In this document: in pieces, positions 3,189-21,894 of the stretch
Numbering within the stretch: position 1 is the stretch's first letter
Layout of the letters: the number at the start of each line of letters is the position of its first letter
Source of the DNA: a phage
Length of the DNA stretch: 64,000 nt
Strand: one strand, 5' to 3'
Assembly (NCBI GenBank): GCA_036252695.1
Contig: GCA_036252695.1_4122.1
Translations under genes and position numbers: made by a program
The notes under the pieces: model-generated
Seen by the model: the letters and a program-made list of their open reading frames with translations, nothing else
Database searches by the model: none
What the model was told of the DNA's origin: nothing

Positions 3189-3247
3189 TTGCAAACTATG
3201 TTTAAAGGCGTATAATGTTTTACATCGAGAGCGGGAACACTTCCCGC
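3189..3247 (+). promoter_or_regulatory. sigma70 promoter + 5' stem-loop cassette
   Basis: -35 TTGCAA 3189-3194, -10 TATAAT 3211-3216, hairpin gcgggaacacttcccgc 3231-3247. Confidence 0.75.
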
Positions 3248-3271
3248 TACACTTTAAAAGAGATTAATACG

Positions 3272-3634
3272 ATGGCGACCCAAATCAATAAAATTATTGC
3301 TAACCTGGTCAACTTCCGTGAAGAGATGAAAGGTCTTCCGGCTGAAACGGTAAAAATTCACATTTCAGCTTATCGGGAACTTATTACAATGTTGCCGCTT
3401 AAGCGTGAACAATACGCCGCTACCGTGATGCTTGATGCGATGATCCATAAGATGATCGCCAGTGATTTAACGATGGTTTATCAGTATATGGGCGAAAATT
3501 TCGCGGTGTATAGTAAACCAGTACCAGGAATGGAAAGTACAGAAGTATTACACGGTTTAAATTTAAAACAAGATGCATGGGATAATATGCCTCGTTTCCT
3601 GGTATGGGCTGACAGTGGCAAAATTTACGAATAA
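3272..3634 (+). CDS. hypothetical early protein
   Basis: ATG at 3272 downstream of promoter/hairpin; ORF track frame of 3215..3634. Confidence 0.65.
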   Translation: MATQINKIIANLVNFREEMKGLPAETVKIHISAYRELITMLPLKREQYAATVMLDAMIHKMIASDLTMVYQYMGENFAVYSKPVPGMESTEVLHGLNLKQDAWDNMPRFLVWADSGKIYE

Positions 3635-3648
3635 GTTTAATAAAGTAC

Positions 3649-3707
3649 TTGCAAACTAAGTTTAAAAGCGTATAATGTTTTACATCAGGTGGGGAATAGT
3701 TCCCCAC
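3649..3707 (+). promoter_or_regulatory. sigma70 promoter + 5' stem-loop cassette
   Basis: -35 TTGCAA 3649-3654, -10 TATAAT 3671-3676, hairpin gtggggaatagttccccac 3689-3707. Confidence 0.75.
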
Positions 3708-3727
3708 TATATAAGAGGATTAAAAAA

Positions 3728-3967
3728 ATGGCTAAATCAAAAATGTTCTTAGGTCACAAAAACAAAACTCATTGGAATGTAAGCCTTTGGATTAATAACG
3801 ATGAGGCATTGTATCGGCTGGCCCAGGACTTTATTGCCGCCAATACTAATCGTAATGATGCGGCCCGTCATATGATGCTATTTTTAGAACAGACTGGGCA
3901 AGATAAAACTCCAGACGGCTTTAAGTATAGCACTACTGCGATCCGTGCGGCGATGGTTGGAATGTAA
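3728..3967 (+). CDS. hypothetical early protein (paralog of 5770..6009)
   Basis: RBS aagagga; shares GHKNKTHWNVSLWINN and TPDGFKYSTTAIRAAMVGM with 5770 gene. Confidence 0.7.
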   Translation: MAKSKMFLGHKNKTHWNVSLWINNDEALYRLAQDFIAANTNRNDAARHMMLFLEQTGQDKTPDGFKYSTTAIRAAMVGM

Positions 3968-4055
3968 TAGAATAGAATTTATTTAAAGTACTATTGCACG
4001 GTGATAGTACTTTATAATAGTGTTTTATTCATACACCAACGATAAGGGCAACAGC

Positions 4056-4322
4056 ATGAATATTAAGTATTTTGCGACGCGTGAACAAGCTCGGATCGCC
4101 GCACGCCAGGACGGGGCAACGTTTAAAGATATGGGCGTACAATCGGAACGTGGTAAACGTTGGGCCATTGTAAAGCGTAGTACCGCCAGATCATTACAGT
4201 ACTGGTTAGCGGCCTTAAAAAGTCCCGATAGTGTATCGCGACGAGTGGTAGAAATAAAGCTCGACCGAAAGGGCAACCGCGTGACCGTGTACCGTACTAA
4301 AAAGATTGCAGTACTTGAATAA
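4056..4322 (+). CDS. hypothetical early protein (paralog of 17098..17493)
   Basis: FATREQARI...RKGNRVTVY shared with 17098 gene; upstream promoter has a 13-nt spacer (weak). Confidence 0.6.
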   Translation: MNIKYFATREQARIAARQDGATFKDMGVQSERGKRWAIVKRSTARSLQYWLAALKSPDSVSRRVVEIKLDRKGNRVTVYRTKKIAVLE

Positions 4323-4329
4323 AAAGTAC

Positions 4330-4388
4330 TTGCAAACTATGTTTAATGGCGTATAATGTTTTACATCGAGAGCGGGAACACTTCCCGC
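4330..4388 (+). promoter_or_regulatory. sigma70 promoter + 5' stem-loop cassette
   Basis: -35 TTGCAA 4330-4335, -10 TATAAT 4352-4357, hairpin gcgggaacacttcccgc. Confidence 0.75.
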
Positions 4389-4409
4389 CTATAACCTGGA
4401 GTAATAAAA

Positions 4410-4640
4410 ATGACTAATATGTATATGACTGAAGTTAAAACTGTAAAAGATACTACCACGAATAAAACTACTTACTTACAGCGGATCTGCGGTGTATGGC
4501 AACGTATCAGCAAATCAAAGTACTATAAATTAACATCATATGCAAACCGTTCGGATTCATTCAGTACTGAAATAAAAGGTAATAAAGTACACCAATACGG
4601 CACTTATTATTATTATAGCCTGGACGCGATTGCAGTATAA
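4410..4640 (+). CDS. hypothetical early protein
   Basis: RBS ctggagt; ORF track. Confidence 0.6.
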   Translation: MTNMYMTEVKTVKDTTTNKTTYLQRICGVWQRISKSKYYKLTSYANRSDSFSTEIKGNKVHQYGTYYYYSLDAIAV

Positions 4641-4887
4641 GCAGTTTACAAATCTTTACAATTGCCGGTATTGACTTATTTTGTCAGTACTGGCATAATG
4701 TATTCATTGGCAGATAAGCCGTAGCCCATAGGGTGCGGGAGTGTATCTATAGAAAAAGTAGTTTAGTATAGTTACAATTGTGCACCCGGTGGGTTAGCTG
4801 TTGTCATGGGGTATATTATGCCAGTACTTGATAATGCTGTCAATACTTTTTTAATATTCAGTACTGAAAACTATTTTTAAAAAGTAC

Positions 4888-4915
4888 TTGCAAACTATGT
4901 TTAAAGGCGTATAAT
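4888..4915 (+). promoter_or_regulatory. sigma70 promoter (upstream of conserved 80-nt leader)
   Basis: -35 TTGCAA 4888-4893, -10 TATAAT 4910-4915. Confidence 0.65.
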
Positions 4916-4921
4916 GTTTTA

Positions 4922-5000
4922 CATCAGGACGGGGAACGAAATAAGTAACTTCCCGTTAAGTAGCCCAGGAGTAAGGCACACGAAAAACTCCCCTGATAAA
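4922..5000 (+). ncRNA. candidate small RNA / structured leader, copy 1
   Basis: ~80 nt between two tandem promoters; near-identical copy at 15897-15976; no ORF. Confidence 0.25.
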
Positions 5001-5005
5001 ATAGT

Positions 5006-5035
5006 TTGACAAATGTTTTTTTAAAAGCGTATAAT
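5006..5035 (+). promoter_or_regulatory. sigma70 promoter
   Basis: -35 TTGACA 5006-5011, -10 TATAAT 5030-5035. Confidence 0.65.
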
Positions 5036-5067
5036 ACTTACATCAACTACTGAATGAGGGTTACAAA

Positions 5068-5679
5068 ATGAAAACTATCACTACTACTACTTATGTTATG
5101 GATTTTTCTGAATTGAACGCAGAACAAAAAACGTCAGCTATCGAACTGGTTCGGGATCGTGAGCGTTCATGCGGTGATTATTTCTTTTCTGAGGGCGTAT
5201 ACGAATACTATAAAGAAACAATTTTGCCGGAGTATGGCATTGATGACGCTGATTTGCAATTCAGTGGTTTTTGGTCGCAAGGTGACGGTGCATCAATTAG
5301 TACTGACCACGTTGACGCAGTGAAGTTTTTACGTAAGGTAAGAGCATTAACTAAGTATCGCTCAATCCGGCACCTGCTGAATGAAGATGATTTGGCGATG
5401 AGTGTAAAGCGTTATCACTACCACTACTCGCATGAGAATACTGTAAGCGGGTACATTGAATCGGCTTACACTGATTTAACCGCAAAACAAGAAACGTTAG
5501 TTAATGAGCTTGAGGAACTACTCACTGACACTATTCGTGAATTGTCCCGCAAGTTGTACCGTGATTTAGAGAATGCATATGAGGATCAATTCACTACTGA
5601 AAACATTACGGCACTGATTGAGGGTAACGAATATCAATTCAATGTTATTGATGGCGTAGTAGAATCAATCGAATATTAA
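5068..5679 (+). CDS. hypothetical acidic protein (203 aa)
   Basis: RBS gaggg; ORF track. Confidence 0.7.
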   Translation: MKTITTTTYVMDFSELNAEQKTSAIELVRDRERSCGDYFFSEGVYEYYKETILPEYGIDDADLQFSGFWSQGDGASISTDHVDAVKFLRKVRALTKYRSIRHLLNEDDLAMSVKRYHYHYSHENTVSGYIESAYTDLTAKQETLVNELEELLTDTIRELSRKLYRDLENAYEDQFTTENITALIEGNEYQFNVIDGVVESIEY

Positions 5680-5691
5680 TTTAAAAAGTAC

Positions 5692-5751
5692 TTGCAAACT
5701 AAGTTTAAAAGCGTATAATACTTTATATCGAGGCGGGGAGTGGTTCCCCGC
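5692..5751 (+). promoter_or_regulatory. sigma70 promoter + 5' stem-loop cassette
   Basis: -35 TTGCAA 5692-5697, -10 TATAAT 5714-5719, hairpin gcggggagtggttccccgc 5733-5751. Confidence 0.75.
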
Positions 5752-5769
5752 TCAAACGAGGATTTAAAA

Positions 5770-6009
5770 ATGGCTAGTACTAAAACTTACAACGGACACA
5801 AAAACAAAACTCATTGGAATGTAAGCCTTTGGATTAATAACGGTGAGTCATTGTATCGGCTTGCTCAAAGTTGCATCGCACAAAGTAGAACTAAAGATAT
5901 TGCAGCGGAATGTATGTACCGCAGATTAAAAGCCAACGGTACTACTACAACGCCGGACGGCTTTAAGTATAGCACTACTGCGATCCGTGCTGCAATGGTT
6001 GGAATGTAA
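5770..6009 (+). CDS. hypothetical early protein (paralog of 3728..3967)
   Basis: RBS gagga; identical C-terminal 19 aa to 3728 gene. Confidence 0.7.
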   Translation: MASTKTYNGHKNKTHWNVSLWINNGESLYRLAQSCIAQSRTKDIAAECMYRRLKANGTTTTPDGFKYSTTAIRAAMVGM

Positions 6010-6067
6010 TATTCAGTACTGTAACAATGGCGGGGAATGGTTCCCGCCTTTATTGAGGGTTTATCTA

Positions 6068-6328
6068 ATGAGTAAAGTAATTAACTATACAGTACTAAGC
6101 AAGTCATTATCTATCAGTCATTGCACCGATGGTTATTGGCTATTTGATGAAACGCGTGGCATGAATTTAGCTATGCGTGCAAAAACTGCTGAGGCGGCGT
6201 ATATTCAAGCACTGGAATACTACCAGGAACGTTTAAAGGAAGTAGAAGAAGATTATAAAAGCCTCAAAGCGAAAGTAGATCATTTCGTCGGTCAATTCAT
6301 CGAGGAAGACGACGACAAACAATATTGA
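6068..6328 (+). CDS. hypothetical early protein
   Basis: RBS tgagggt before ATG 6068; hairpin ggcggggaatggttcccgcc 6029-6048 upstream. Confidence 0.55.
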   Translation: MSKVINYTVLSKSLSISHCTDGYWLFDETRGMNLAMRAKTAEAAYIQALEYYQERLKEVEEDYKSLKAKVDHFVGQFIEEDDDKQY

Positions 6329-6336
6329 AAAAGTAC

Positions 6337-6396
6337 TTGCAATTAGTTTCAAGTACTGTATAATGGTTTACATCAAAGGGGGAAATGGTTCTCCCT
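6337..6396 (+). promoter_or_regulatory. sigma70 promoter + 5' stem-loop cassette
   Basis: -35 TTGCAA 6337-6342, -10 TATAAT 6359-6364, hairpin agggggaaatggttctccct. Confidence 0.75.
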
Positions 6397-6414
6397 GGTA
6401 ATGAGGAAAATAAA

Positions 6415-6636
6415 ATGGCTAATATCACTACTCTTTCCCAACTGGAAGCACTGGTTAAATCTATGCGGGAACATGCCGACAAAATCGGCGTACAAGATCC
6501 AGCCGTTTGCTTCTGCGACGAATTGAATGATGATACACTGGTAATAGCAGAAGTCCAGGACGTTTCTAACTATTCCTCGCGTTACACTGGCGGCGTAGCA
6601 AATAAAGGTGACTTCTGTTTATACCTTACAAAATAA
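6415..6636 (+). CDS. hypothetical early protein
   Basis: RBS gagga; ORF track frame. Confidence 0.65.
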   Translation: MANITTLSQLEALVKSMREHADKIGVQDPAVCFCDELNDDTLVIAEVQDVSNYSSRYTGGVANKGDFCLYLTK

Positions 6637-6640
6637 CAAC

Positions 6641-6671
6641 GCGGGGAGATAATAACTCCCCGTTACTTTTT
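6641..6671 (+). terminator. intrinsic terminator
   Basis: cggggag...ctccccg stem followed by ttacttttt. Confidence 0.55.
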
Positions 6672-6804
6672 CAGTACTGAATCATTTAATAGACGGATCT
6701 ATGCACCCGGTGGGTTAGTGACTGTTTCGTCTTGATGTAGTAATTATGCCAGTACTGGATGCACTTGTCAACAATTATTTTTCAAATACTTTTTATTAAA
6801 ATAC

Positions 6805-6859
6805 TTGCAATTAGTTTTTAAACGCGTATAATGTTTTGCATAGGGGGAGCGGTTCCCCT
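6805..6859 (+). promoter_or_regulatory. sigma70 promoter + 5' stem-loop cassette
   Basis: -35 TTGCAA 6805-6810, -10 TATAAT 6827-6832, hairpin gggggagcggttcccc. Confidence 0.75.
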
Positions 6860-6879
6860 GGTAACTAAGGAATAATAAA

Positions 6880-7137
6880 ATGCTTGAACAAATCAAATCA
6901 ACGTCTGCGAATGTAACGGGAACGGTAGCACACTTTACTAGTGATGAATCGCGGGGCGTTCCCTATTGTGCTGTACATGTAAACACTGAGGGTAACTACT
7001 GGTTTACGGTTTACGGATCATATTCATTTGGACGGCCAGGGCATCAAAAAATTCTGGATAAAGTACAACCAACGGGTAAAAATATCACTGCCGAAATGTT
7101 TTATAAAAATCATAAAGTACTTGATAATAGTTTTTAG
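6880..7137 (+). CDS. hypothetical early protein
   Basis: RBS aaggaa; ORF track. Confidence 0.65.
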   Translation: MLEQIKSTSANVTGTVAHFTSDESRGVPYCAVHVNTEGNYWFTVYGSYSFGRPGHQKILDKVQPTGKNITAEMFYKNHKVLDNSF

Positions 7138-7180
7138 TACTGTATAATATTTTACATCGCAAGGGGGAGCGGTTCCCCCT
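7121..7180 (+). promoter_or_regulatory. sigma70 promoter + 5' stem-loop cassette
   Basis: -35 TTGATA 7121-7126, -10 TATAAT 7143-7148, hairpin agggggagcggttccccct. Confidence 0.7.
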
Positions 7181-7199
7181 GGTAACTAAGGATAATCAA

Positions 7200-7499
7200 A
7201 TGAAAATTGCAATCATCGCCCTGGCTTTATCTGTTTCCTCTTTCGCTGTTAATGCGTCATTAGATGTAAGTAGTGAAAAATTCATTCAGTGCACTGTTGC
7301 AATGACCGATGAAAGAACTGGCGAGATTGTATTAAAGGATTTAGAGATCCAGCCAGAAGCATTTAAAAACGGGCCGTTCCATGAAGAAGACGAAAAAGGT
7401 AGCACGACAATTTATTACGATGCAAGTACTAAACGCGGTTCGGTCACTGTTATGGATACTGAGAAAGTAACTCATACTGGCGTTATTAATTGCCGTTGA
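7200..7499 (+). CDS. putative secreted/periplasmic protein with N-terminal signal peptide
   Basis: N-term MKIAIIALALSVSSFAVNA is signal-peptide-like (hydrophobic core, AxA-type cleavage site). Confidence 0.65.
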   Translation: MKIAIIALALSVSSFAVNASLDVSSEKFIQCTVAMTDERTGEIVLKDLEIQPEAFKNGPFHEEDEKGSTTIYYDASTKRGSVTVMDTEKVTHTGVINCR

Positions 7500-7520
7500 T
7501 AGATACTACGGGGTAACATC

Positions 7521-7751
7521 ATGACTAAGCGAATTGTTTTACTTAACGAAAGCAGTACTACACAACTACTTAACGCCGTGCATTATGATATTGAAACGAG
7601 CGTTAATCTTATCAGTACTGTAGTACTATTGGACACTGGAAAGGTCGCCAATGATAAAGCGATTGCAGGTATATTAACGGATCTTGAGCCTGGTAGCAGT
7701 GCACCAATAACGTTAAATGGTAAAGTGTTTAATATTTTACTCACTGATTAA
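7521..7751 (+). CDS. hypothetical early protein
   Basis: RBS gggg; ORF track. Confidence 0.55.
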   Translation: MTKRIVLLNESSTTQLLNAVHYDIETSVNLISTVVLLDTGKVANDKAIAGILTDLEPGSSAPITLNGKVFNILLTD

Positions 7752-7757
7752 GTACAT

Positions 7758-7786
7758 AGCCCACCTGGTGGGCTTTTTTGTTTTTG
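7758..7786 (+). terminator. intrinsic terminator
   Basis: agcccacctggtgggc hairpin + ttttttgtttttg. Confidence 0.8.
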
Positions 7787-7833
7787 TAGTATCGTAGTAC
7801 TGAGATACTTTAAAAATAGTTTTAAAAAAGTAG

Positions 7834-7861
7834 TTGACATTACCACAAAAAGGCGTAGAAT
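7834..7861 (+). promoter_or_regulatory. sigma70 promoter with ~120-nt leader
   Basis: -35 TTGACA 7834-7839, -10 TAGAAT 7856-7861; leader resembles the 4922 leader family. Confidence 0.65.
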
Positions 7862-7984
7862 GTATTACATCAAGACGGGGAGCACTAAGTAGACCGCCAG
7901 TAAGTCGAACGAAAAACTGGACACGTCGAGAAAACTTTGATACACTAATAAACGTAAACTAAACTTTAATTGAGGATTTATAAA

Positions 7985-8467
7985 ATGGCTAATGTAAAAT
8001 CATTCATCAAAGCACTGGTAGCAAATGAAACTAACGTAGCGGCAGAGATCCTGGCTGAACTGGATAACGATACCATGAAAGCGGTACGCAATAATTTTAA
8101 CATCGCTTACAGTACTGCGAAAGAACTACAAGCAAATAAAGCGGCAGAAATTGAAGCGGCAAAGGCGGCCCGTGAAGCAGAACTACAAGCAACAATTGAA
8201 AGTATCCAGGCGGCAGTAGTTGGATTGGATCTGGAAGTAGTTACAGAGATGGCACAAAAAGCCCTGGCGGTTAAGTATGGGGAAGACAAGCCAGAAGTAA
8301 AAGCCAAAAAATGGATTCAGGAACGCGTAGCGGTAGTACTGGACAACGGGGAAGAATATCTGATTCCGGTGCGTGGTAACTGCATTGCGGTAGTACTGGA
8401 TGCGATTAACTCCAGTGGTATGACTCGCGAGGAATGGATCGAAGCTCATCGCAAAGTGGAAGCATAA
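7985..8467 (+). CDS. hypothetical Ala/Glu-rich protein (160 aa, coiled-coil-like)
   Basis: RBS gagga; KAAEIEAAKAAREAELQA segment. Confidence 0.7.
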   Translation: MANVKSFIKALVANETNVAAEILAELDNDTMKAVRNNFNIAYSTAKELQANKAAEIEAAKAAREAELQATIESIQAAVVGLDLEVVTEMAQKALAVKYGEDKPEVKAKKWIQERVAVVLDNGEEYLIPVRGNCIAVVLDAINSSGMTREEWIEAHRKVEA

Positions 8468-8488
8468 CAATTAAAGTACTGAATCACT

Positions 8489-8516
8489 AGCCCACTGCAT
8501 AAGTGGGCTTTTTTGT
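8489..8516 (+). terminator. intrinsic terminator
   Basis: gcccact...agtgggc hairpin + tttttt. Confidence 0.8.
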
Positions 8517-8668
8517 GTTTATCGTTTACCAGGCCACCAGCACCGCCTAGAATCGATTCTAACGCATTAAACTGATTATCTGATGCATCGCCCTAGCTGG
8601 TGGCGTTAAGGTCGTTAGAATGCGATTGAGAGCGTTTAAAGTATTTTGCAAAAAGTAATAAAAAGTAC

Positions 8669-8727
8669 TTGCACGATTAAGAGATTAGCGTATAATGTTT
8701 TACATCGAGAGGGGGAAACGGTTCTCC
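8669..8727 (+). promoter_or_regulatory. sigma70 promoter + 5' stem-loop cassette
   Basis: -35 TTGCAC 8669-8674, -10 TATAAT 8691-8696, GC hairpin. Confidence 0.7.
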
Positions 8728-8751
8728 TTCCAAATCAAAGGAATTAAAACA

Positions 8752-8979
8752 ATGGCTATCGTAATCACTCGCGTAACTGGTACTACTGGCAATTCTTCTA
8801 CTGTTGCTGTAATTACTAATAAGAAAGGTGCGGAACTACATTTTGCAATGTATAACTGGTCAGTTGATGAGTTTGGTCAGTACGCTAGTGTAGAATACAT
8901 TGAAACCTATCAAGTGCCGTCGATTAGTTTAACTGATTTGGGCGTTGAGCGTATCCTTTGCCTGGATGAATTAAATTAA
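8752..8979 (+). CDS. hypothetical early protein
   Basis: RBS aaagga; ORF track frame. Confidence 0.65.
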   Translation: MAIVITRVTGTTGNSSTVAVITNKKGAELHFAMYNWSVDEFGQYASVEYIETYQVPSISLTDLGVERILCLDELN

Positions 8980-8987
8980 AAAAGTAC

Positions 8988-9047
8988 TTGCAAAGTAAAT
9001 CGAATAAAGTATAATACATTACATCAAGGGGAGAAATGGTTCTCCCT
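8988..9047 (+). promoter_or_regulatory. sigma70 promoter + 5' stem-loop cassette
   Basis: -35 TTGCAA 8988-8993, -10 TATAAT 9010-9015, hairpin ggggagaaatggttctccc. Confidence 0.75.
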
Positions 9048-9065
9048 GATAATGAGGAAACTAAT

Positions 9066-15714: not shown

Positions 15715-15724
15715 AAATAATTGA

Positions 15725-15976: not shown

Positions 15977-15980
15977 TAGT

Positions 15981-16008
15981 TTGACAATAGAAATTAAACG
16001 AGTATAAT
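15981..16008 (+). promoter_or_regulatory. sigma70 promoter
   Basis: -35 TTGACA 15981-15986, -10 TATAAT 16003-16008. Confidence 0.7.
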
Positions 16009-16040
16009 ACTTACATCAACCACTGATAAGGAAACATAAA

Positions 16041-16316
16041 ATGCGGATTCTACTGACAGCTAACGAAATCGAACAAGTACTGACTACTAACCTGGAAGAC
16101 TGGAAACGTGAAGCAGATATCCAGTCGGTTCAATGGCTTAACGATAAGTTAACGCCGGATGACTTAAGCAAGATTGTAGATCCTCAATTCTACGAAGATA
16201 TCCACGACACCGCGTTAAGCGTCGAGGATGTACTAGATAAGCACTTTATTGATACAGATTTGCAGGTTTACGGTCGTAAAAACTTTATCACTATTCACGA
16301 CATTTACAATACTTAA
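16041..16316 (+). CDS. hypothetical acidic protein
   Basis: RBS aaggaaa; ORF track. Confidence 0.65.
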   Translation: MRILLTANEIEQVLTTNLEDWKREADIQSVQWLNDKLTPDDLSKIVDPQFYEDIHDTALSVEDVLDKHFIDTDLQVYGRKNFITIHDIYNT

Positions 16317-16319
16317 GTA

Positions 16320-16382
16320 TTGACAAAGTATCTTAGTACTGTATAATAGTTTACATCAAGTGAGGGGAAACGGTTCCCCTCC
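16320..16382 (+). promoter_or_regulatory. sigma70 promoter + 5' stem-loop cassette
   Basis: -35 TTGACA 16320-16325, -10 TATAAT 16342-16347, hairpin gaggggaaacggttcccctc; duplicated at 16591. Confidence 0.75.
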
Positions 16383-16404
16383 TAACAAAGAGAGAGAAAT
16401 AAAA

Positions 16405-16587
16405 ATGGCTAAGTGCACTATCTGCAAGAAAGAAATAGTATTAGTTCCAAGTGCCCGTGAACGTGCCGCTCGGTTTGGTGGCAAAGCGTCAGACTATACA
16501 AAAATGTTTACTGCCCATACAGCTTGCCAGGTAGCAAAACGTTCACAAGAAAGCGTAGAATTAATGCGTAAACTTTCCAAAAAATAA
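16405..16587 (+). CDS. small Cys-containing protein (possible zinc ribbon)
   Basis: MAKCTICKKE...HTACQ; RBS agagagaga. Confidence 0.55.
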   Translation: MAKCTICKKEIVLVPSARERAARFGGKASDYTKMFTAHTACQVAKRSQESVELMRKLSKK

Positions 16588-16590
16588 GTA

Positions 16591-16652
16591 TTGACAAAGT
16601 ATCTTAGTACTGTATAATAGTTTACATCAAGTGAGGGGAATGGTTCCCCTCC
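16591..16652 (+). promoter_or_regulatory. sigma70 promoter + 5' stem-loop cassette
   Basis: -35 TTGACA 16591-16596, -10 TATAAT 16613-16618, hairpin gaggggaatggttcccctc. Confidence 0.75.
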
Positions 16653-16674
16653 TAACAAAAAGAGAGAAATTAAA

Positions 16675-16998
16675 ATGACTATGATCCTTACCCAGAAAGT
16701 AGAAATGAAAATTGTAACTTCCTTTGACATTAAAGTTAATCGGTGGACTGATAGCCACGGCAATACTTACCACTCATGCTACGTGTCTGCATTGATTGGT
16801 GACCGCTGGGAAGACCTGGGACATGAAACCTTTACTTACGGTTACGGTACACAAGGCGAATACACGGGCTTGGAGATCATTAAAGAAACCGTTATAGGTT
16901 TCAACCCGAAAGAAAAAGTTATTCACCGCATCGAGGAAGAGATCAACAAAGAAATTACAGTTCGTTACTACGATGTAAAACGTAAGAAAGACATGTAA
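16675..16998 (+). CDS. hypothetical early protein (paralog of 9591..9914)
   Basis: NRWTDSHGNTYHSC...ETFTYGYG...VKRKKDM. Confidence 0.7.
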   Translation: MTMILTQKVEMKIVTSFDIKVNRWTDSHGNTYHSCYVSALIGDRWEDLGHETFTYGYGTQGEYTGLEIIKETVIGFNPKEKVIHRIEEEINKEITVRYYDVKRKKDM

Positions 16999-17020
16999 TA
17001 GAATCCATTTAAAGTACTAT

Positions 17021-17049
17021 TTGACATTGCCCAGATAGTACTTTATAAT
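17021..17049 (+). promoter_or_regulatory. sigma70 promoter
   Basis: -35 TTGACA 17021-17026, 17-nt spacer, -10 TATAAT 17044-17049. Confidence 0.7.
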
Positions 17050-17097
17050 AGACTCTAACTTGTAGTACTAATTAACTTAACTAATAGGATGTACACC

Positions 17098-17493
17098 ATG
17101 ATTACTAAATTCTTCGCTACCCGTGAACAAGCTCGCATCGTTGCCCGTGAAGAAGGTGAAACATTTAAAGACATGGGCAAAGATGCACCGAAAGGACAAC
17201 GCTGGGCGGTACAGTTCAAAGAGATCTCTGATATTGTGAATTCACCTGAACCAGTACTTACTGAAGCAGAACTGAAGAAAGCTCAAGAACTGGCTGAAGT
17301 ACTGAACGCTCAAGATGACTTCTTGAAAGGTTCTGATATTCAAGTACAAGTGAATAGTAATGCATGGACTCACGCGGATCACCTGGCAAACCTTAAGCGT
17401 CCAAGTGAACTGATTCGTAACCAGAAAGAGATTCGTCATGACCGTAAAGGAAACCGTGTAACAGTATACAGTAAACGCCGCCAGGTTATCTAA
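17098..17493 (+). CDS. hypothetical early protein (paralog of 4056..4322)
   Basis: FATREQARIVAREEGETFKDMG...RKGNRVTVY. Confidence 0.65.
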   Translation: MITKFFATREQARIVAREEGETFKDMGKDAPKGQRWAVQFKEISDIVNSPEPVLTEAELKKAQELAEVLNAQDDFLKGSDIQVQVNSNAWTHADHLANLKRPSELIRNQKEIRHDRKGNRVTVYSKRRQVI

Positions 17494-17516
17494 TAACTTT
17501 GCAGTACTAACAACAC

Positions 17517-17542
17517 GGCGGGAACTATTCCCGCCTTTTTTA
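17517..17542 (+). terminator. intrinsic terminator
   Basis: ggcgggaactattcccgcc + ttttttat. Confidence 0.7.
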
Positions 17543-17555
17543 TAGGATAAACAAA

Positions 17556-17810
17556 ATGATTAAGGTTCAACTATCAAACGATAATGTATTACGGGTACAC
17601 TATAAAGCCCCACAGAGAATCATCACAAAGGCCGTACAGCTTGCTAATGAGTTTATTAATGGTAGTCTATTGCCTAGGAAGTTAAGCAACGGGAAACTAC
17701 GTGTTATCGATGTAGACACTAACAATAGAATAGTGATCGAGAGTACTGGAAAAATTAATCTATATGAACACCAACAATACAATAAAAAAATAAAACTAAT
17801 ATCACGTTGA
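17556..17810 (+). CDS. hypothetical protein
   Basis: RBS aggataa; ORF track. Confidence 0.55.
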   Translation: MIKVQLSNDNVLRVHYKAPQRIITKAVQLANEFINGSLLPRKLSNGKLRVIDVDTNNRIVIESTGKINLYEHQQYNKKIKLISR

Positions 17811-17835
17811 CAGTACTCAAATGTTTTAGTATTAT
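17807..17835 (+). promoter_or_regulatory. sigma70 promoter
   Basis: -35 TTGACA 17807-17812, -10 TATTAT 17830-17835; module duplicated at 18088. Confidence 0.65.
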
Positions 17836-17868
17836 GTATCTATACCAACACAGAGAGAGAGAAACAAA

Positions 17869-18087
17869 ATGAAATTATCTAAAATCGAAAAGAAAACTAT
17901 TGATGAAGCAGTGAAGCACGGTTATACCTTTCGTAATGATTCACACTTCACTAGTTTTCAACAGGGAAACCGTACCATCAAAAAACTCATTGATAAAGGT
18001 TTACTCACTAAGGTTGATAACGGGAACGGTGTAGAATATCAACCGACAGAAGACGCATTATCACTAAAGAAATATTCTATTATCTAA
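17869..18087 (+). CDS. hypothetical protein
   Basis: RBS agagagaga; ORF track. Confidence 0.6.
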   Translation: MKLSKIEKKTIDEAVKHGYTFRNDSHFTSFQQGNRTIKKLIDKGLLTKVDNGNGVEYQPTEDALSLKKYSII

Positions 18088-18116
18088 TTGACAGTACTCA
18101 AATGTTTTAGTACTAT
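18088..18116 (+). promoter_or_regulatory. sigma70 promoter
   Basis: -35 TTGACA 18088-18093, -10 TACTAT 18111-18116. Confidence 0.6.
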
Positions 18117-18144
18117 GTACGCATACCAACACGGGGAAAACAAA

Positions 18145-18387
18145 ATGATTACTTTAGAAAAACGTATCAAAGAGACTACAACGCTGGTGGAACTGTTAAC
18201 CGTTCTTAAATGCCGGGTAACTCCATTCAGTACACCGGACTTTATCAACATGGTGGACGTTAACGGTCGATATCGTATTGCGGTCGAACAAGGTACGGCA
18301 AAAGTATTCAGTACTAAAAATACGCGTGAAGTATTCCACGCAGTTCAAGTAAAAAAAGTAGTTGCCATTGATAGTAAAGTACTGTAA
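18145..18387 (+). CDS. hypothetical protein
   Basis: ATG 18145 after acggggaaaacaaa RBS region. Confidence 0.55.
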   Translation: MITLEKRIKETTTLVELLTVLKCRVTPFSTPDFINMVDVNGRYRIAVEQGTAKVFSTKNTREVFHAVQVKKVVAIDSKVL

Positions 18388-18418
18388 TATAGTTTCATTA
18401 ACTCAAGGAGTCAACACA

Positions 18419-19003
18419 ATGCGTAACTATACTAAATTCATCCGTTCACTTCATGCAATGGAAACCAACAAAGAGATCCTTTCAGCTTGTCGGTTAGCTG
18501 GACTGGAGATCGTCGGTGCGGGTTCTTCCCGTATTGTATTCGCTTTAAATGATCGGTTAGTGATTAAGGTCGCGAATTGTGATGCGGGTGTAGAACAAAA
18601 TGAAACTGAATGTAAGGTATGGAATTTTTTAGATTATGACCGTCCGCACCTTAAACAGTACTTTGCTAAAGTGCATATGCATTTATGCGATCCTGATAAT
18701 CTGTTTATTGTTATGGATCGTTTGAGTACTGCAAGCAAAGGCAGTGTAAAGCATGTAAACGCGTGCAATGAGTTAAAGTACAATATTAAACGTAATACGG
18801 TAGAACGCCATCACCATTTCGCTGATGCTCTCAATCACGTTGATGATACATTATCCACACTAACGATAAGAGATATCAGAAAACAGAATATCGGCCAGGA
18901 TCGCAACGGCTTGATTAAAGTACTTGATTACGGTTTAACCCGCAATATCTGGAATCAGTACTATAAAAAACGTGATGTTAACGCGATAACTATAACACGA
19001 TAA
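18419..19003 (+). CDS. putative minimal Ser/Thr protein-kinase-like protein
   Basis: Gly-rich loop GAGSSRIVF, VIKV lysine, catalytic-loop-like IRDIRKQNI, DFG-like LDYG; RBS aaggag. Confidence 0.45.
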   Translation: MRNYTKFIRSLHAMETNKEILSACRLAGLEIVGAGSSRIVFALNDRLVIKVANCDAGVEQNETECKVWNFLDYDRPHLKQYFAKVHMHLCDPDNLFIVMDRLSTASKGSVKHVNACNELKYNIKRNTVERHHHFADALNHVDDTLSTLTIRDIRKQNIGQDRNGLIKVLDYGLTRNIWNQYYKKRDVNAITITR

Positions 19004-19011
19004 AAAAGATT

Positions 19012-19205
19012 AAAAAAGGGATTGACTCCAGTCAGTCCCTTTGCTATTATATATTCATTGAGAGATAACTCACTGACCCATAGGGTGCGGAAGTGTATCT
19101 ATTATATAAGTATTCAGTACTGAAAACTATTTTATAAAAAGTACTTGCAAACTATCTCAATGAGCGTATAATGTTTTATATCGAGAGGGGGAAATGGTTC
19201 TCCCT
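19012..19205 (+). repeat. dispersed ~190-bp intergenic module (near-identical to 11717-11910)
   Basis: Same hairpin/promoter, acccatagggtgcgg box and promoter cassette. Confidence 0.85.
19145..19205 (+). promoter_or_regulatory. sigma70 promoter + 5' stem-loop cassette
   Basis: -35 TTGCAA 19145-19150, -10 TATAAT 19167-19172, hairpin agggggaaatggttctccct. Confidence 0.75.
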
Positions 19206-19227
19206 GGTACTAAAAGGAATCAAGACG

Positions 19228-19449
19228 ATGACTACTATGACATGCGTTCACGCTTCAAATCTTCTGAATGATGCAGCATTTAAAGCAGGTGAAGAATATC
19301 AATGCTATCGGGATGAAAATAAAAAAGTTTTCGTCGTTGATGCTAACGGTTTCCATATTGAATTACAATCCGGCTTCACTGGTGTTGATGGTAAATCAGT
19401 ATGGGGCGTACAGGATGATAACGGTACATATCATTTTAAACGTAATTAA
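19228..19449 (+). CDS. hypothetical early protein
   Basis: RBS aaaagga; ATG 19228. Confidence 0.6.
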   Translation: MTTMTCVHASNLLNDAAFKAGEEYQCYRDENKKVFVVDANGFHIELQSGFTGVDGKSVWGVQDDNGTYHFKRN

Positions 19450-19452
19450 GTA

Positions 19453-19511
19453 TTGACAAAGTATATCAGTACTGTATAATAGTTTACATCAAGGGGAGAA
19501 TAGCTCTCCCC
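19453..19511 (+). promoter_or_regulatory. sigma70 promoter + 5' stem-loop cassette
   Basis: -35 TTGACA 19453-19458, -10 TATAAT 19475-19480, hairpin ggggagaatagctctcccc. Confidence 0.75.
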
Positions 19512-19533
19512 ACCAATAAAAGGAAACAAAATT

Positions 19534-19806
19534 ATGTCCAGCTACTCCGCTACTATGATTATTAAAGATATGAACGGTAATCCTACTTCTGCTGGTGGAT
19601 CATTTGGTAACATTAATTTAGATGGGCGGTTATCAATTGAATCAGCCATCAATGCAGCGAAAGAAGTTTTTAAGAATGAATGTACTGTAAGCAAACTGGA
19701 TTATATGGGCTTCGCTATCGAGAAAACTAATCGTTTTGTGGACTACAAAAAACCACTGATGATTGATACTAACCTGAAAGCAAACGAAGTGGAATACTTA
19801 TTATGA
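19534..19806 (+). CDS. hypothetical early protein
   Basis: RBS aaaggaaa; ORF track. Confidence 0.65.
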   Translation: MSSYSATMIIKDMNGNPTSAGGSFGNINLDGRLSIESAINAAKEVFKNECTVSKLDYMGFAIEKTNRFVDYKKPLMIDTNLKANEVEYLL

Positions 19807-19994
19807 CAGTAGAAGAAGTTAAAAAAGTACTGGCAGTACTACGCTATCATAATCATTGTAAGGTGAAGAATGATCCTGATTATCTTGATTCATCGCTGGA
19901 AGAGGATACACTACAAGCAATAAGCCATATGCAAAAAATGCTTAAGCGTATGACCGAAAAGAACAGGCCGGACTATATCGGAAATAAAATTTAA
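19803..19994 (+). CDS. hypothetical protein
   Basis: ATGA start/stop overlap with upstream gene. Confidence 0.5.
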   Translation: MTVEEVKKVLAVLRYHNHCKVKNDPDYLDSSLEEDTLQAISHMQKMLKRMTEKNRPDYIGNKI

Positions 19995-20001
19995 AAAGTA
20001 C

Positions 20002-20058
20002 TTGCATTGTAAGTAAAACAAAGTATAATGTTTTACATAGGGGGAGATATCCTCCCCC
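20002..20058 (+). promoter_or_regulatory. sigma70 promoter + 5' stem-loop cassette
   Basis: -35 TTGCAT 20002-20007, -10 TATAAT 20024-20029, hairpin gggggagatatcctccccc. Confidence 0.75.
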
Positions 20059-20077
20059 ACTAATAAGGAGTACTAAA

Positions 20078-20302
20078 ATGGCTAACTTTGATGAACTGAT
20101 GCGGGAAGTAGCTACCCTGGCAGAAGAGAAGAAATCATTTGATTCTATCTATAACACCGCTTACAGTGATTCAGTACTGGCATGTACTCAGGATCAAAAA
20201 GATGAACTGATCGCCACCTATCATGAAGCATGGAAGTATTACCGCCAATGGGAGAAAGAAGAAAGCGAGTCTACCATCAACGGCATCAATAATCTAATCT
20301 AA
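20078..20302 (+). CDS. hypothetical acidic protein
   Basis: RBS aaggag; ORF track. Confidence 0.65.
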   Translation: MANFDELMREVATLAEEKKSFDSIYNTAYSDSVLACTQDQKDELIATYHEAWKYYRQWEKEESESTINGINNLI

Positions 20303-20320
20303 AGTTTTATTTCAGTACTA

Positions 20321-20349
20321 TTGACAATGCGTGATAGTACTGATGTAAT
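20321..20349 (+). promoter_or_regulatory. sigma70 promoter
   Basis: -35 TTGACA 20321-20326, -10 TGTAAT 20344-20349. Confidence 0.55.
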
Positions 20350-20377
20350 AACTTTACTAACTACAAGGGGAAACATA

Positions 20378-20635
20378 ATGGAACAGTTCACACAATATCG
20401 GGTAAATCCTCAAGCTATGGCCTACGTAGAAGACCATAAAACATTACCAGTACAGACACCAATCAAAGGCCGTATCTATCGTGCTATGCAGTGGAATAAC
20501 GCCTATAATGGCTATAAAGCGGTAGCGGCTGCAATGTACTTAGGGGATGGCGAATGGTTTGATCCAAATAATCCTGGTGCACTAGATAGTACTGAACAAA
20601 TGACATGGGCCGACTATATCGAAGATATTTCATAA
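20378..20635 (+). CDS. hypothetical protein
   Basis: RBS aagggga; ATG 20378. Confidence 0.6.
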   Translation: MEQFTQYRVNPQAMAYVEDHKTLPVQTPIKGRIYRAMQWNNAYNGYKAVAAAMYLGDGEWFDPNNPGALDSTEQMTWADYIEDIS

Positions 20636-20642
20636 AAACTAT

Positions 20643-20703
20643 TTGACAGTACTACAAGATAATGTATAATGTTTTACATAGAGCGGGGGAATAGTTCTCC
20701 CGC
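20643..20703 (+). promoter_or_regulatory. sigma70 promoter + 5' stem-loop cassette
   Basis: -35 TTGACA 20643-20648, -10 TATAAT 20665-20670, hairpin gcgggggaatagttctcccgc. Confidence 0.75.
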
Positions 20704-20723
20704 ACCTTTAGGAGTAAAACATT

Positions 20724-20924
20724 ATGTCAATCGCTAACGAATTGGTTGCAGTACTGAATGAAGCAAAAGCCAACTGCATCGATGTACAGATCAAAGAGCT
20801 TGGCAATGGCTTGATCGGCTGTACTTGTACAGTGCAAACGGCTACCGATTATCGGGAAGTGGAATCACTCGAATCACTGGTACGGTATATTAAAATCCTG
20901 GTAGAAGATTGGAGAATCATCTAA
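20724..20924 (+). CDS. hypothetical protein
   Basis: RBS taggagt; ORF track. Confidence 0.6.
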   Translation: MSIANELVAVLNEAKANCIDVQIKELGNGLIGCTCTVQTATDYREVESLESLVRYIKILVEDWRII

Positions 20925-20940
20925 CAAAAAAGAATAAAAA

Positions 20941-21105
20941 AAAGGGATTGACTCCGGTCAGTCCCTTTGCTATTATATACGCATAGACAAAAACTAGCCC
21001 ACAGGGTGCAGAGAAGTATCTATAAGATAGTTAATAACGGTGAGTAACTATCTGCTGGTGGATGTAATGCCAGTACTCAAAACTATTTCAAAAAAAGTAT
21101 TGACA
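20941..21105 (+). repeat. dispersed intergenic module (copy similar to 15725-15900)
   Basis: aaagggattgactccggtcagtccctttgctattatatacgcatag + agcccacagggtgc. Confidence 0.85.
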
Positions 21106-21127
21106 AAGTATATCAGTACTGAGATAA
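21100..21127 (+). promoter_or_regulatory. sigma70 promoter
   Basis: -35 TTGACA 21100-21105, -10 GATAAT 21122-21127; module duplicated at 21417. Confidence 0.65.
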
Positions 21128-21182
21128 TGTATCTCGTAGGGCGGCAATAGTGCAGCCCACCTCCAAAAGAGCGAGATATAAA

Positions 21183-21398
21183 ATGGCGTTAACCAAACAA
21201 GAAATTATCGACCGTATCAAAGAGTCAACTGGCTGGTATGTTGGGGACCGTTTAATTGTTAAAGTTCTCGATTATTCAAATAATCCTCTTGCACCGGAAC
21301 CAGTGGCATACAAATTATCCTGGATATCTGCGTTTAGCGGTAAGCGTGAAAGATGTGTGTACTATCCGAACACAGTCGGGCTACAGTTCTGTAAATAA
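21183..21398 (+). CDS. hypothetical protein
   Basis: ATG 21183; ORF track frame. Confidence 0.55.
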   Translation: MALTKQEIIDRIKESTGWYVGDRLIVKVLDYSNNPLAPEPVAYKLSWISAFSGKRERCVYYPNTVGLQFCK

Positions 21399-21416
21399 AT
21401 TTTAATAGAAAAAGTA

Positions 21417-21445
21417 TTGACAAAGTATATCAGTACTGCAATAAT
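21417..21445 (+). promoter_or_regulatory. sigma70 promoter
   Basis: -35 TTGACA 21417-21422, -10 AATAAT 21440-21445. Confidence 0.6.
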
Positions 21446-21498
21446 GTATCTCGTAGGGCGGCAATGGTGCGACGGCCCACAAAGTTAGGAGATTCACC

Positions 21499-21825
21499 AT
21501 GAGTACTTCAATCGCTATCGTTAAAGCTTTCATCCGTACCAATTTCGACCGCATTACTGTTGATGGTAATGATCGGGAAGTAGAATACTCTTTCATTGTT
21601 GCACAAACCGCAAACGGTGCACGCTATATCTTAAACGATAGTGAAGCTAACCACTACTTCTATAATAAAGGATTACACTACATCCCTAGCGAAGTAGTCT
21701 ACAGTAAGATGAATAAGCTGGTAGACAAGATTAACGCTAAAGGTACTATCGATTTACAGTACTGGACCGAAACCGATCCAGAATACGGATCACATCGTTA
21801 CCTGAATCCAGGAATTAAAATGTAA
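21499..21825 (+). CDS. hypothetical protein
   Basis: RBS taggaga; ORF track. Confidence 0.65.
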   Translation: MSTSIAIVKAFIRTNFDRITVDGNDREVEYSFIVAQTANGARYILNDSEANHYFYNKGLHYIPSEVVYSKMNKLVDKINAKGTIDLQYWTETDPEYGSHRYLNPGIKM

Positions 21826-21833
21826 AAAGTACT

Positions 21834-21894
21834 TGCATTGTACTTAGAATCAAGTATAATGTTTTACATAGAGAGGGGGAAATGGTTCTCCCTC
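21834..21894 (+). promoter_or_regulatory. sigma70 promoter + 5' stem-loop cassette
   Basis: -35 TTGCAT 21834-21839, -10 TATAAT 21855-21860, hairpin gagggggaaatggttctccctc; same promoter sequence as 15864. Confidence 0.75.

Follow-up and report, generated by a model that had tools for sequence, protein, structure and literature searches.

The left part of a 64,000-nucleotide stretch of phage DNA (contig GCA_036252695.1_4122.1, hereafter the window) carries a long row of small genes, and the spacers at 3189–21894 repeat one composite: a sigma70-type promoter, a short G/C-rich hairpin and a Shine-Dalgarno sequence. This raises the question of whether the repetition is a genuine unit, what its hairpin does, and whether it is kin to the promoter-early-stem-loop elements (PeSLs) of T4-type phages. 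To delimit it, we used a rule-based detector that relies on no profile: a −35 of the form TTGnnn, a spacer of 16–18 nt, at least 5/6 of TATAAT, and a stem of 6 bp or more, 4 or more of them G–C pairs, starting 6–17 nt past the −10 and closing a loop of 3–6 nt. It returned exactly 24 copies, all on the + strand and all in 3150–22300, the rest of the 64 kb and the − strand yielding none, while an nhmmer profile built from 25 seeds recovered 26 full-length copies, all on the + strand (E 1e-8 to 1e-21). Altogether the composites number about 29 (24 canonical, two long-loop at 4888 and 15863, one degenerate at 7834, and two of the GGGCGGCA type at 21100 and 21417) and are confined to 3.18–21.9 kb. 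A consensus scan found about 45 sigma70-like promoters (9–12 of 12 matches) on the + strand of 3.0–22.8 kb, compared with five on the − strand at 10/12 or better; 44 + strand matches were observed versus 7.1 in mononucleotide shuffles of the region. Mean pairwise identity was 63% among cassettes and 33% among the starts of the open reading frames (ORFs) behind them. A chance origin of the repetition is excluded, and the promoter plus 5' hairpin cassette is a real, highly non-random regulatory unit. The initial annotation had recognized this composite correctly at 3189–21894, but its count of more than 35 copies was too high, since a number of 35–45 fits the promoters alone; likewise, it had placed promoter and hairpin before nearly every gene, and we found an own promoter for about 40 of about 54 genes, the remainder lying in short operons, whereas only about half bear the standard cassette of about 95 nt. 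The canonical copies, defined by the detector and by reading of their anatomy, are the following.

3177..3274, + strand: canonical cassette; −35 TTGCAA 3189, −10 TATAAT 3211, hairpin 3230–3248 AGCGGGAAcacTTCCCGCT, ATG 3272; also found by the profile
3637..3730, + strand: canonical cassette; −35 3649, hairpin 3688–3708 GGTGGGGAAtagTTCCCCACT, ATG 3728; also found by the profile
4318..4412, + strand: canonical cassette; −35 4330, hairpin 4372–4388 GCGGGAAcacTTCCCGC, ATG 4410; also found by the profile
5680..5772, + strand: canonical cassette; −35 5692, hairpin 5732–5752, ATG 5770
6325..6417, + strand: canonical cassette; −35 6337, hairpin 6377–6396, ATG 6415
6793..6882, + strand: canonical cassette; −35 6805, hairpin 6841–6860, ATG 6880
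7109..7202, + strand: canonical cassette; −35 TTGATA 7121, hairpin 7162–7180, ATG 7200
8657..8754, + strand: canonical cassette; −35 TTGCAC 8669, hairpin 8709–8730, ATG 8752
8976..9068, + strand: canonical cassette; −35 8988, hairpin 9028–9047, ATG 9066
10676..10770, + strand: canonical cassette; −35 10688, hairpin 10730–10746 (the sole canonical one with a T-rich tail), ATG 10763/10768
10906..10999, + strand: canonical cassette; −35 10918, hairpin 10956–10975, ATG 10997
11245..11337, + strand: canonical cassette; −35 11257, hairpin 11297–11316 GGGGAGAAatgaTTCTCCCC, ATG 11335
11837..11930, + strand: canonical cassette; −35 11849, hairpin 11890–11908, ATG 11928
12273..12369, + strand: canonical cassette; −35 TTGACA 12285, hairpin 12325–12344, ATG 12367
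14387..14476, + strand: canonical cassette; −35 TTGCAT 14399, −10 TATAGT, hairpin 14438–14456, ATG 14468/14474
15006..15098, + strand: canonical cassette; −35 TTGACA 15018, hairpin 15058–15077, ATG 15096
15304..15397, + strand: canonical cassette; −35 TTGCAC 15316, hairpin 15356–15374, ATG 15395
16308..16407, + strand: canonical cassette; −35 TTGACA 16320, hairpin 16362–16381, ATG 16405
16579..16677, + strand: canonical cassette; −35 TTGACA 16591, hairpin 16633–16651, ATG 16675
19133..19230, + strand: canonical cassette; −35 19145, hairpin 19186–19205, ATG 19228
19441..19536, + strand: canonical cassette; −35 TTGACA 19453, hairpin 19493–19511, ATG 19534
19990..20080, + strand: canonical cassette; −35 TTGCAT 20002, hairpin 20040–20058 GGGGGAGatatcCTCCCCC, ATG 20078
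20631..20726, + strand: canonical cassette; −35 TTGACA 20643, hairpin 20683–20703, ATG 20724
21821..21917, + strand: last canonical cassette; −35 TTGCAT 21833, hairpin 21873–21894, ATG 21915

Each cassette runs from a UP-like A-tract through AGTACT, TTGCAA or TTGACA, 16 nt, TATAAT directly preceded by G, the sequence GTTTTACATCGA, a G-rich hairpin of 7–9 bp and a Shine-Dalgarno sequence to the ATG; the aligned consensus of the canonical copies reads AaAaAgtacTTGcaA, 16 nt, TATAAT with its invariant G, then gtTTTACATcgA. TATAAT is invariant in the aligned copies, the single listed departure being TATAGT in the 14399 copy, and the A-tract lies at −45 to −37 in 23/23 of them. The conserved GTTTTACATCGA forms the initial transcribed sequence, and the ATG follows the −10 by 40–57 nt. 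The sigma70 format given in the initial annotation holds for both hexamers, but its spacer of 16–17 nt narrows to 16 nt in every canonical copy, and the downstream G/C hairpin, put there at about 10 nt past the −10 with 6–8 bp, starts 8–14 nt (mode 12) past the hexamer and has 7–9 bp with a loop of 3–5 nt. The hairpin types quoted there are present (e.g. GCGGGAAcacTTCCCGC and GGGGAGAAatgaTTCTCCCC), and the loop sequences vary (CAC, TAG, TGG, ATGG, ACGG, AAAC, ATATC). An extended −10 (TGn) was rejected, as the invariant G sits at −13 and not at −14. Two ORF calls, at 3215–3634 and 21882–22316, begin at an ATG inside a cassette, either in the TATAATG of the −10 or in the hairpin loop; the starts backed by a Shine-Dalgarno sequence lie instead at 3272 and 21915, and in Turkey3, fEgEco12 and SD-1_S14 the 420-nt coding sequences annotated at the corresponding site have the same kind of in-cassette start.

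To examine the hairpin, we pooled the cassettes of the window with those of six relatives, 188 in all and 141 of them unique. Watson–Crick pairs were found in 50–55 of 55 distinct hairpins at pairs 1–7 counted from the loop, and pairing collapsed further outward, with only 10/55 hairpins paired at position 9 and 9/55 at position 10. A MAFFT alignment of 59 leaders, folded with RNAalifold, yielded no consensus structure, since loops and stems of differing length fall out of register; covariation was therefore tested on loop-anchored sets of equal length. Among 30 equal-length sequences, 96.7% of the cells were paired versus 83.0% in column shuffles, and 35 cells were compensatory versus 9.9 (0/500 in each comparison). 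Five of the eight stem pairs covary with both sides changing (GC/CG, GC/AU/UA). In slid controls 51–70% was reached. The non-Watson–Crick juxtapositions in stems comprised 21 G·T versus 4 A·C/C·A, an asymmetry expected of a + strand RNA and not of a DNA palindrome. As far as comparative evidence goes, the hairpin is shown to be kept as a + strand RNA structure.

These data bear directly on what the hairpin could be. A functionless hairpin, inherited as a piece of an ancestral promoter, spread by duplication and persisting by hitch-hiking, would fit the clear homology of all copies and the conservation of their polarity and core sequence; however, the compensatory changes that hold pairing well above the shuffles, its sharp stop after 7–8 bp and the retention of the geometry in strongly diverged cassettes of other phage families make this very improbable. 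Whole-unit duplication is not the source either, since the cassettes precede unrelated ORFs: the genes tested include only three paralogous pairs, so that gene duplication does not account for the similarity of the cassettes. Invariance exceeds the needs of pairing in the G-rich 5' arm, the A–U closing pairs and the polarity of the arms, and this would suit a regulator site at which a phage or host protein binds the GGGGAA...UUCCCC RNA, or a DNA palindrome at +10 to +27, and switches the early set jointly. Such a post-transcriptional or roadblock regulon would loosely resemble the control of early mRNAs by T4 RegA/RegB; T4 early mRNA is indeed shut off by an RNase that acts on specific sequences within translation initiation regions (PMC3014915), and the conservation of the geometry across phage families would agree with it too. 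We nevertheless consider it unlikely, as the loops are variable, the outer stem pairs covary freely, a DNA operator would lack the bias of G·T over A·C, and no candidate binding protein was identified. An RNase III site and a boxB/nut-like antiterminator were rejected on anatomy, the stems having only 7–9 bp and the loops being variable, as judged by general knowledge of those elements. An insulator that keeps the ribosome-binding site open on read-through RNA was not supported, the predicted accessibility of that site being 0.55 with the native and 0.57 with a shuffled hairpin (p = 0.1).

Whether the hairpins terminate transcription was asked separately. They lie downstream of sigma70-type promoters and 23 of the 24 canonical ones have no T-rich tail in the terminator scan (the exception being 10730), so at sequence level we regard the hairpin as a 5'-leader structure and not as a terminator, as the initial annotation had proposed from the missing T tracts. 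As intrinsic terminators (a G+C-rich hairpin plus a U tract), the sites at 7758, 8489, 17517 and 6029 pass the scan, in contrast to the cassette hairpins. Two of these are promoter-less copies of the cassette hairpin that carry T tails and resemble true terminators.

6029..6048, + strand: hairpin-only copy GGCGGGGAAtggTTCCCGCC with a T-rich tail, ahead of gene 6068; found by the profile and the terminator scan
17517..17541, + strand: hairpin-only copy GGCGGGAActaTTCCCGCC followed by TTTTTT, of the same hairpin type, a likely intrinsic terminator; found by the terminator scan

A PeSL-type combination of terminator and promoter, in which the hairpin attenuates or terminates upstream transcription and leaves each gene under its own promoter only, could draw on these two T-tailed copies, on the finding that G...C-rich PeSL stem-loops cut downstream lacZ expression as strongly as rrnB T1 (PMC2839356), and on the homologous hairpins of the phAPEC8-like phage ASO2A, which are annotated as rho-independent terminators (WebGeSTer, some TransTermHP). 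We hold it to be improbable: a terminator downstream of the cassette's own predicted start would abort the cassette's own transcripts, the T-rich tail is missing from nearly all canonical hairpins, and the hairpin position is set by the −10 and not by the upstream stop codon. In addition, true PeSL-like elements, with a hairpin that encloses the −35 and is followed by TTTGC, are present separately at 11720, 15726, 19015 and 20941.

The location of the array suggests when it would be used. Megablast of 3000–12000 matched Escherichia phages of about 350–385 kb in the genus Asteriusvirus (EC22.5-2, Turkey3, BF17, phAPEC6 and 121Q) at 94–97% identity, identifying the window as the left end of an Asteriusvirus genome, a 121Q/PBECO4-like jumbo coliphage; the closest relative, EC22.5-2, has a complete sequence of 351,992 bp. 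Collinear blocks of 88–98% identity with Turkey3, BF17, 121Q and fEgEco12 placed the region in the Asteriusvirus direct terminal repeat (DTR): position 1576 is the first base of the BF17 and fEgEco12 records, and homology to BF17 and SD-1_S14 stops at 22758–22762.

1576..22762, + strand: direct terminal repeat of about 21.2 kb, its coding part filled by the cassette array; from collinear BLAST chains

The fEgEco12 DTR measures 20,993 bp as confirmed by restriction digests (PMC13070987), and the vB_Ec-M-J record has a DTR annotated at 1–21525. Because the mapped ends enclose it, 3189–21894 is the coding part of the DTR. Gene architecture shifts at the boundary, from promoter-bearing spacers of about 90 nt inside to abutting or overlapping genes without promoters beyond 22.8 kb. 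Of the roughly 54 small genes in the array, mostly orphans, Pfam cut-offs were exceeded by a GNAT acetyltransferase and a DksA/TraR zinc-finger protein, a kinase-like protein matched weakly, and the others are orphans; this content is consistent with a takeover module, and the gene-by-gene promoters on one strand are consistent with an early module. In the related phage PA5oct, host RNA polymerase transcribes the terminal-repeat genes at high level early on, and infection is blocked by rifampicin (PMC7318152), while the early region of CBB has RpoD-like promoters with UP-like elements (PMC5259590). The gene-by-gene early transcription suggested in the initial annotation agrees with all of this. 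Further investigation showed that the cassette is a DTR feature in the relatives as well. All 27 full-length cassettes of EC22.5-2 lie in one 18.7-kb interval (31,395–50,105), with no cassette in the remaining 333 kb, and each of six relatives carries 20–27 copies, all within the equivalent of the DTR.

Our leading explanation, which as a whole we give about an even chance of being right, is that the DTR holds an early array in which portable cassettes of promoter and 5' stabiliser hairpin serve single genes and in which modules are exchanged at the cassettes. Judging from the promoter quality and from PA5oct and CBB, host sigma70 RNA polymerase would start about 6–8 nt past the −10 immediately after injection, which would leave the hairpin about 2–8 nt inside each primary transcript. 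RNase E/G favour 5'-monophosphate ends (PMC3014915), and by analogy with known leaders we infer that the hairpin most likely serves as a 5'-proximal stabiliser that limits the 5'-end-dependent action of RppH and of RNases E and G; on RNA reading through from upstream it could block 3' exonucleases. The outcome would be a strong, autonomous burst of expression for each early gene. With the start assumed at the seventh nucleotide past the −10 (conserved ...TTTACAT), the predicted unpaired 5' tail averages 6 nt (range 2–8), and the predicted stem probability is 0.93 whether the RNA is monocistronic or extended by 150 nt of read-through from upstream. Because the cassettes are mutually similar while their ORFs are unrelated, they would also act as homology patches for the gain, loss and replacement of ORF modules among relatives, and the same modules are common to Stephanstirmvirinae (phi92-like and phAPEC8-like phages).

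The second half of this explanation was examined with collinear chains against six relatives, which gave 31 breakpoint clusters in 3150–22300. Fifteen of them fall inside canonical cassettes against 12.6% expected (p ~1e-6, whole-region null), 19 in any promoter element against 20.6% expected, and 18 between genes against 28% expected (p = 5e-4). The proposal of the initial annotation that the cassettes supply homology for modular shuffling is thus borne out to the extent that cassettes and breakpoints coincide. Alignments of single junctions say more than these counts. At the 5680..5772 cassette, fEgEco12 is identical through the upstream gene, the promoter and the initial transcribed sequence, and this identity is lost at the hairpin's 5' arm; on the far side of the replaced segment, in the 6325..6417 cassette, homology restarts at AGTACTTGCAA. 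The hairpin-only 6029 site corresponds to a full cassette at the orthologous site in 121Q. Mapping of crossovers inside cassettes proved unresolvable, as mutual cassette similarity carries homology through the whole unit, and only selected pairwise junctions are informative.

Several of these junctions lie exactly at the 5' edge of the hairpin, as would be expected if the cassette were a dedicated recombination site, that is, a mobile-element end whose extruded cruciform or hairpin is cut by a structure-specific nuclease and whose part in expression is secondary. An RB49 minicircle crossover was mapped inside the loop of a stem-loop, and a targeted recombinase was considered (PMC2839356); the presence of modules in unrelated phage families points the same way. 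Other junctions, however, lie at the −35/AGTACT end of the cassette, ordinary homologous recombination between 95-nt patches of 60–90% identity accounts for all cases, and the G·T bias indicates RNA and not DNA. Stems of 7–9 bp with loops of 3–5 nt also extrude poorly as cruciforms, and we judge a dedicated site to be quite improbable.

Several points weigh against the early-array explanation itself. Gene-sized indels necessarily end between genes, and under an intergenic-only null 11/18 breakpoints fall in cassettes versus 41% expected (p = 0.067), so that enrichment in cassettes over any spacer is only suggestive. The covariation and G·T counts include partly orthologous copies and are not independent events, and many of the G·T cases represent one recurrent stem type (GGGGGAA/TTCTCCC). 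Protection in the ompA leader reportedly tolerates no more than about 2–4 unpaired nucleotides, and with a predicted tail of 2–8 nt stabilisation may be weak. The invariant polarity of the G-rich 5' arm could reflect common descent or protein recognition rather than stability alone. The searched literature contained no start-site, half-life or termination data for this phage group.

The kinship to PeSLs was then considered. PeSLs combine sigma70-like early promoters and an AT-rich upstream region with a stem-loop that lies within or against the promoter at varying position (ahead of or over the −35, between the two boxes, over the −10, or in front of the start site) and terminates transcription effectively; PeSLs recombine with one another to give indels and encapsidated minicircles (PMC2839356, PMC4122927). 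They have been described in RB49/phi1, PST/T4 and nt-1/KVP40 (Arbiol et al. 2010, PMC2839356; Comeau et al. 2014, PMC4122927). Like them, the cassette is a repeated sigma70-like early promoter (TATAAT, −35 TTGCAA/TTGACA, A-tract) with an AT-rich upstream region, a stable adjacent G/C-rich stem-loop (typically GGGG...CCCC in PeSLs; here stems of 7–9 bp with a GGGG/CCCC core) and a Shine-Dalgarno sequence; it also precedes small orphan genes on one strand of a plastic region, and it appears to coincide with indel or replacement junctions between close relatives. The stem, however, does not lie within or over the promoter but 8–14 nt past the −10, beyond the predicted start. Direct reading of RB49 PeSLs revealed a GGGGATC...GATCCCC stem between the −35 and −10 or a stem over the −10; that stem-loop is absent from the transcript of its promoter and has been shown to terminate, whereas the cassette hairpin is placed in the 5' leader and is not followed by a T tract. 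The genome is that of a Rak2-like jumbo phage and not of Straboviridae, the array is limited to the DTR, and the comparison with PeSL sequences proposed in the initial annotation disclosed no similarity, the cassette profile finding nothing in the RB49 hyperplastic region (95–135 kb; nhmmer E > 0.5). Relatedness to the described T4-type elements, which that annotation had left unverified, was therefore not supported, and from sequence the cassette is best described as a PeSL-like analogue with its stem-loop moved into the 5' leader, not as a PeSL member. Four elements of true PeSL layout do occur in the window, AAAGGGATTGACTCCGGTCAATCCCTTTGCTATTAT at 11720–11755, 15726–15761, 19015–19050 and 20941–20976. 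In these, the −35 (TTGACT) of a TTGACT-17-TATTAT promoter lies enclosed in a 12-bp hairpin with a T-rich stretch behind it, and each of the four drives a unit without an ORF.

Other known systems share single aspects of the cassette. The E. coli ompA leader and the T7 phi10 leader (pET vectors) carry 5'-terminal stabilising stem-loops; in hairpins of the ompA type only a few unpaired nucleotides precede the stem, and its loss shortens the mRNA half-life. A 5' hairpin likewise stabilises phage mRNA in the T4 gene 32 leader (as cited in PMC8948821). As in these three, a short stable hairpin would stand near the mRNA 5' end, upstream of an unstructured ribosome-binding site; the three are single, experimentally tested cases, whereas 24–29 copies per repeat are present here, known from sequence alone, and the predicted 5' tail of about 2–8 nt is longer than the optimum reported for ompA. 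The SPO1 host-takeover module and the T5 pre-early region similarly place small genes and strong one-strand promoters in a terminal redundancy. We know of no conserved 5' hairpin tied to each promoter that has been described for SPO1, T5 or PA5oct, and their modules have no sequence relationship to the cassettes. The PA5oct DTR is alike in its small genes of unassigned function and its close-set, strong host promoters on one strand, and its early transcription is high (PMC7318152).

A closer counterpart was found in the Stephanstirmvirinae. A pattern scan of IMG/VR returned only three matching contigs, of about 350 kb each, and one 87-nt cassette used as query hit 155 phage records, many of them phages of 130–152 kb from the phAPEC8, phi92 and related groups. 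A search of 5,426 complete E. coli genomes gave no match, and the cassette is therefore not derived from a host or prophage in that set. In the corresponding regions of ESCO32 (OM386658) and ASO2A (MZ726793), nearly all small-gene spacers contain TTGACA with a −10 placed 16–17 nt on, then, after about 10 nt more, a GGGCGGGAA...TTTCCCGCC hairpin and, ahead of the ATG, a Shine-Dalgarno sequence, so that the promoter–hairpin geometry is retained in diverged cassettes. Nine to ten DTR genes have homologues there, in different order and at 36–96% amino-acid identity, and nucleotide homology to these phages begins and ends in cassettes: the 4318..4412 module is 89% identical to ESCO32 from the −10 to the stop codon, and one ESCO32 cassette is about 86–87% identical to 3179–3276 of the window. 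These phages differ in their weaker −10 (TAAGAT, TAAACT), longer stems, genomes of about 150 kb and unrelated core genes. In these records the hairpins are labelled rho-independent terminators and not treated as one unit with the promoter; the ASO2A annotation repeats the series of a "promoter", a "rho-independent terminator" about 10 nt on, and a coding sequence. In the searchable literature, subscription papers lying outside it, we found no prior description of the composite unit in Asteriusvirus, rV5, phi92 or phAPEC8, whose promoters and terminators are itemised apart. Three records named "Campylobacter phage" (MG065639, MG065689 and MG065650; 146–151 kb) contain the coliphage cassette at 84–88% identity; as they have the same size as the cassette-bearing phAPEC8/phi92-like records, this host label is probably wrong.

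If the early-array explanation holds, the DTR of these giant phages would be a plug-and-play rack of early genes swapped at identical promoter/leader units, and the PeSL idea would extend beyond T4-type phages in a different grammar that places the hairpin in the transcript instead of the promoter; it would also explain the "terminators" annotated right after promoters in phAPEC8-like phages and imply a pool of early genes common to phage families without common core genes. The cassettes would offer strong promoter/leader parts ready for use, and they are natural sites at which to map the early transcription of jumbo coliphages. More tentatively, and in our view with only a modest chance of being true, the cassette may be a portable standard for early-gene expression common to unrelated virulent coliphages (Asteriusvirus, the phi92-/phAPEC8-like Stephanstirmvirinae and possibly others) that doubles as an adaptor for the exchange of ORFans. 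An inserted ORF would then be highly expressible at once, and ORFans for host takeover or anti-defence could be exchanged between families during co-infection, in functional resemblance to an integrase-free gene-cassette system, possibly aided by a structure-specific activity on the hairpin.

The remaining composites and promoters of the array are the following.

4876..5005, + strand: long-loop variant; −35 4888, GGGAA-13 nt-TTCCC, ORF-less structured leader of about 75 nt, second promoter 5006
7822..7987, + strand: degenerate relative; TTGACA-16-TAGAAT at 7834, partial hairpin, 120-nt leader, ATG 7985
15851..15980, + strand: second long-loop variant; −35 15863, ORF-less structured leader, then promoter 15981
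21088..21186, + strand: variant; TTGACA-17-GATAAT at 21100 and imperfect GGGCGGCA...TGCAGCCC hairpin, a type common in phAPEC8/phi92-like phages
21405..21501, + strand: variant; TTGACA-17-AATAAT at 21417, related imperfect hairpin
9217..9291, + strand: example of a hairpin-less promoter class, TTGACA-17-CATAAT; further copies at 9521 and 12599, a similar one at 20321
5006, 12870, 13982, 15981, 17021, 17807 and 18088, + strand: other hairpin-less promoters

In the two long-loop variants (4916–5005 and 15891–15980), the 13-nt loop is followed by a self-closing leader of about 75 nt (CAUCAGG...CCUGAU, about −19 kcal/mol) without an ORF, after which the second promoter serves the next gene.

Further ORF-less, promoter-driven units form a family, each with AGCCCAYMGGGTGC: on the + strand 4671–4775, 11727–11830, 13393–13500, 15733–15840, 19022–19125 and 20948–21075, and on the − strand from promoters at 4843 and 6771, the unit from 4843 converging on the + strand unit at 4671. 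In most cases "tattcagtactgaaaactatttt" and a canonical cassette follow directly. The units may encode small RNAs; they had no Rfam match and their predicted structures are modest, and Rfam gathering and tRNA scans of the whole window likewise gave no matches.

The palindrome AGTACT, which is part of the cassette (AAAGTACTTGCAA; cAGTACTGTATAAT), is strongly over-represented across the window, in both coding and non-coding DNA, and is densest in the DTR. The DTR has 133 copies versus 6.7 expected and 22763–64000 has 108 versus 10.3 (first-order Markov), CAGTACTG occurs 38 times in the DTR versus 0.2 expected, and EC22.5-2 (352 kb) has 919 AGTACT copies versus about 119 expected from base composition. 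No other palindromic hexamer matches this excess.

Outside the array, positions 1–1232 and the sequence from 22814 on consist of tandem, abutting or overlapping genes of about 60–75 amino acids with no promoters between them. [quoted passage not shown] The following 1232–3188, about 2 kb of non-coding DNA across the genome terminus at 1576, contains many short direct repeats (e.g. ggctaaacggctagat... at 2390–2480), several AGTACT copies and at least three promoter-like sites, and is likely the packaging or terminus region.

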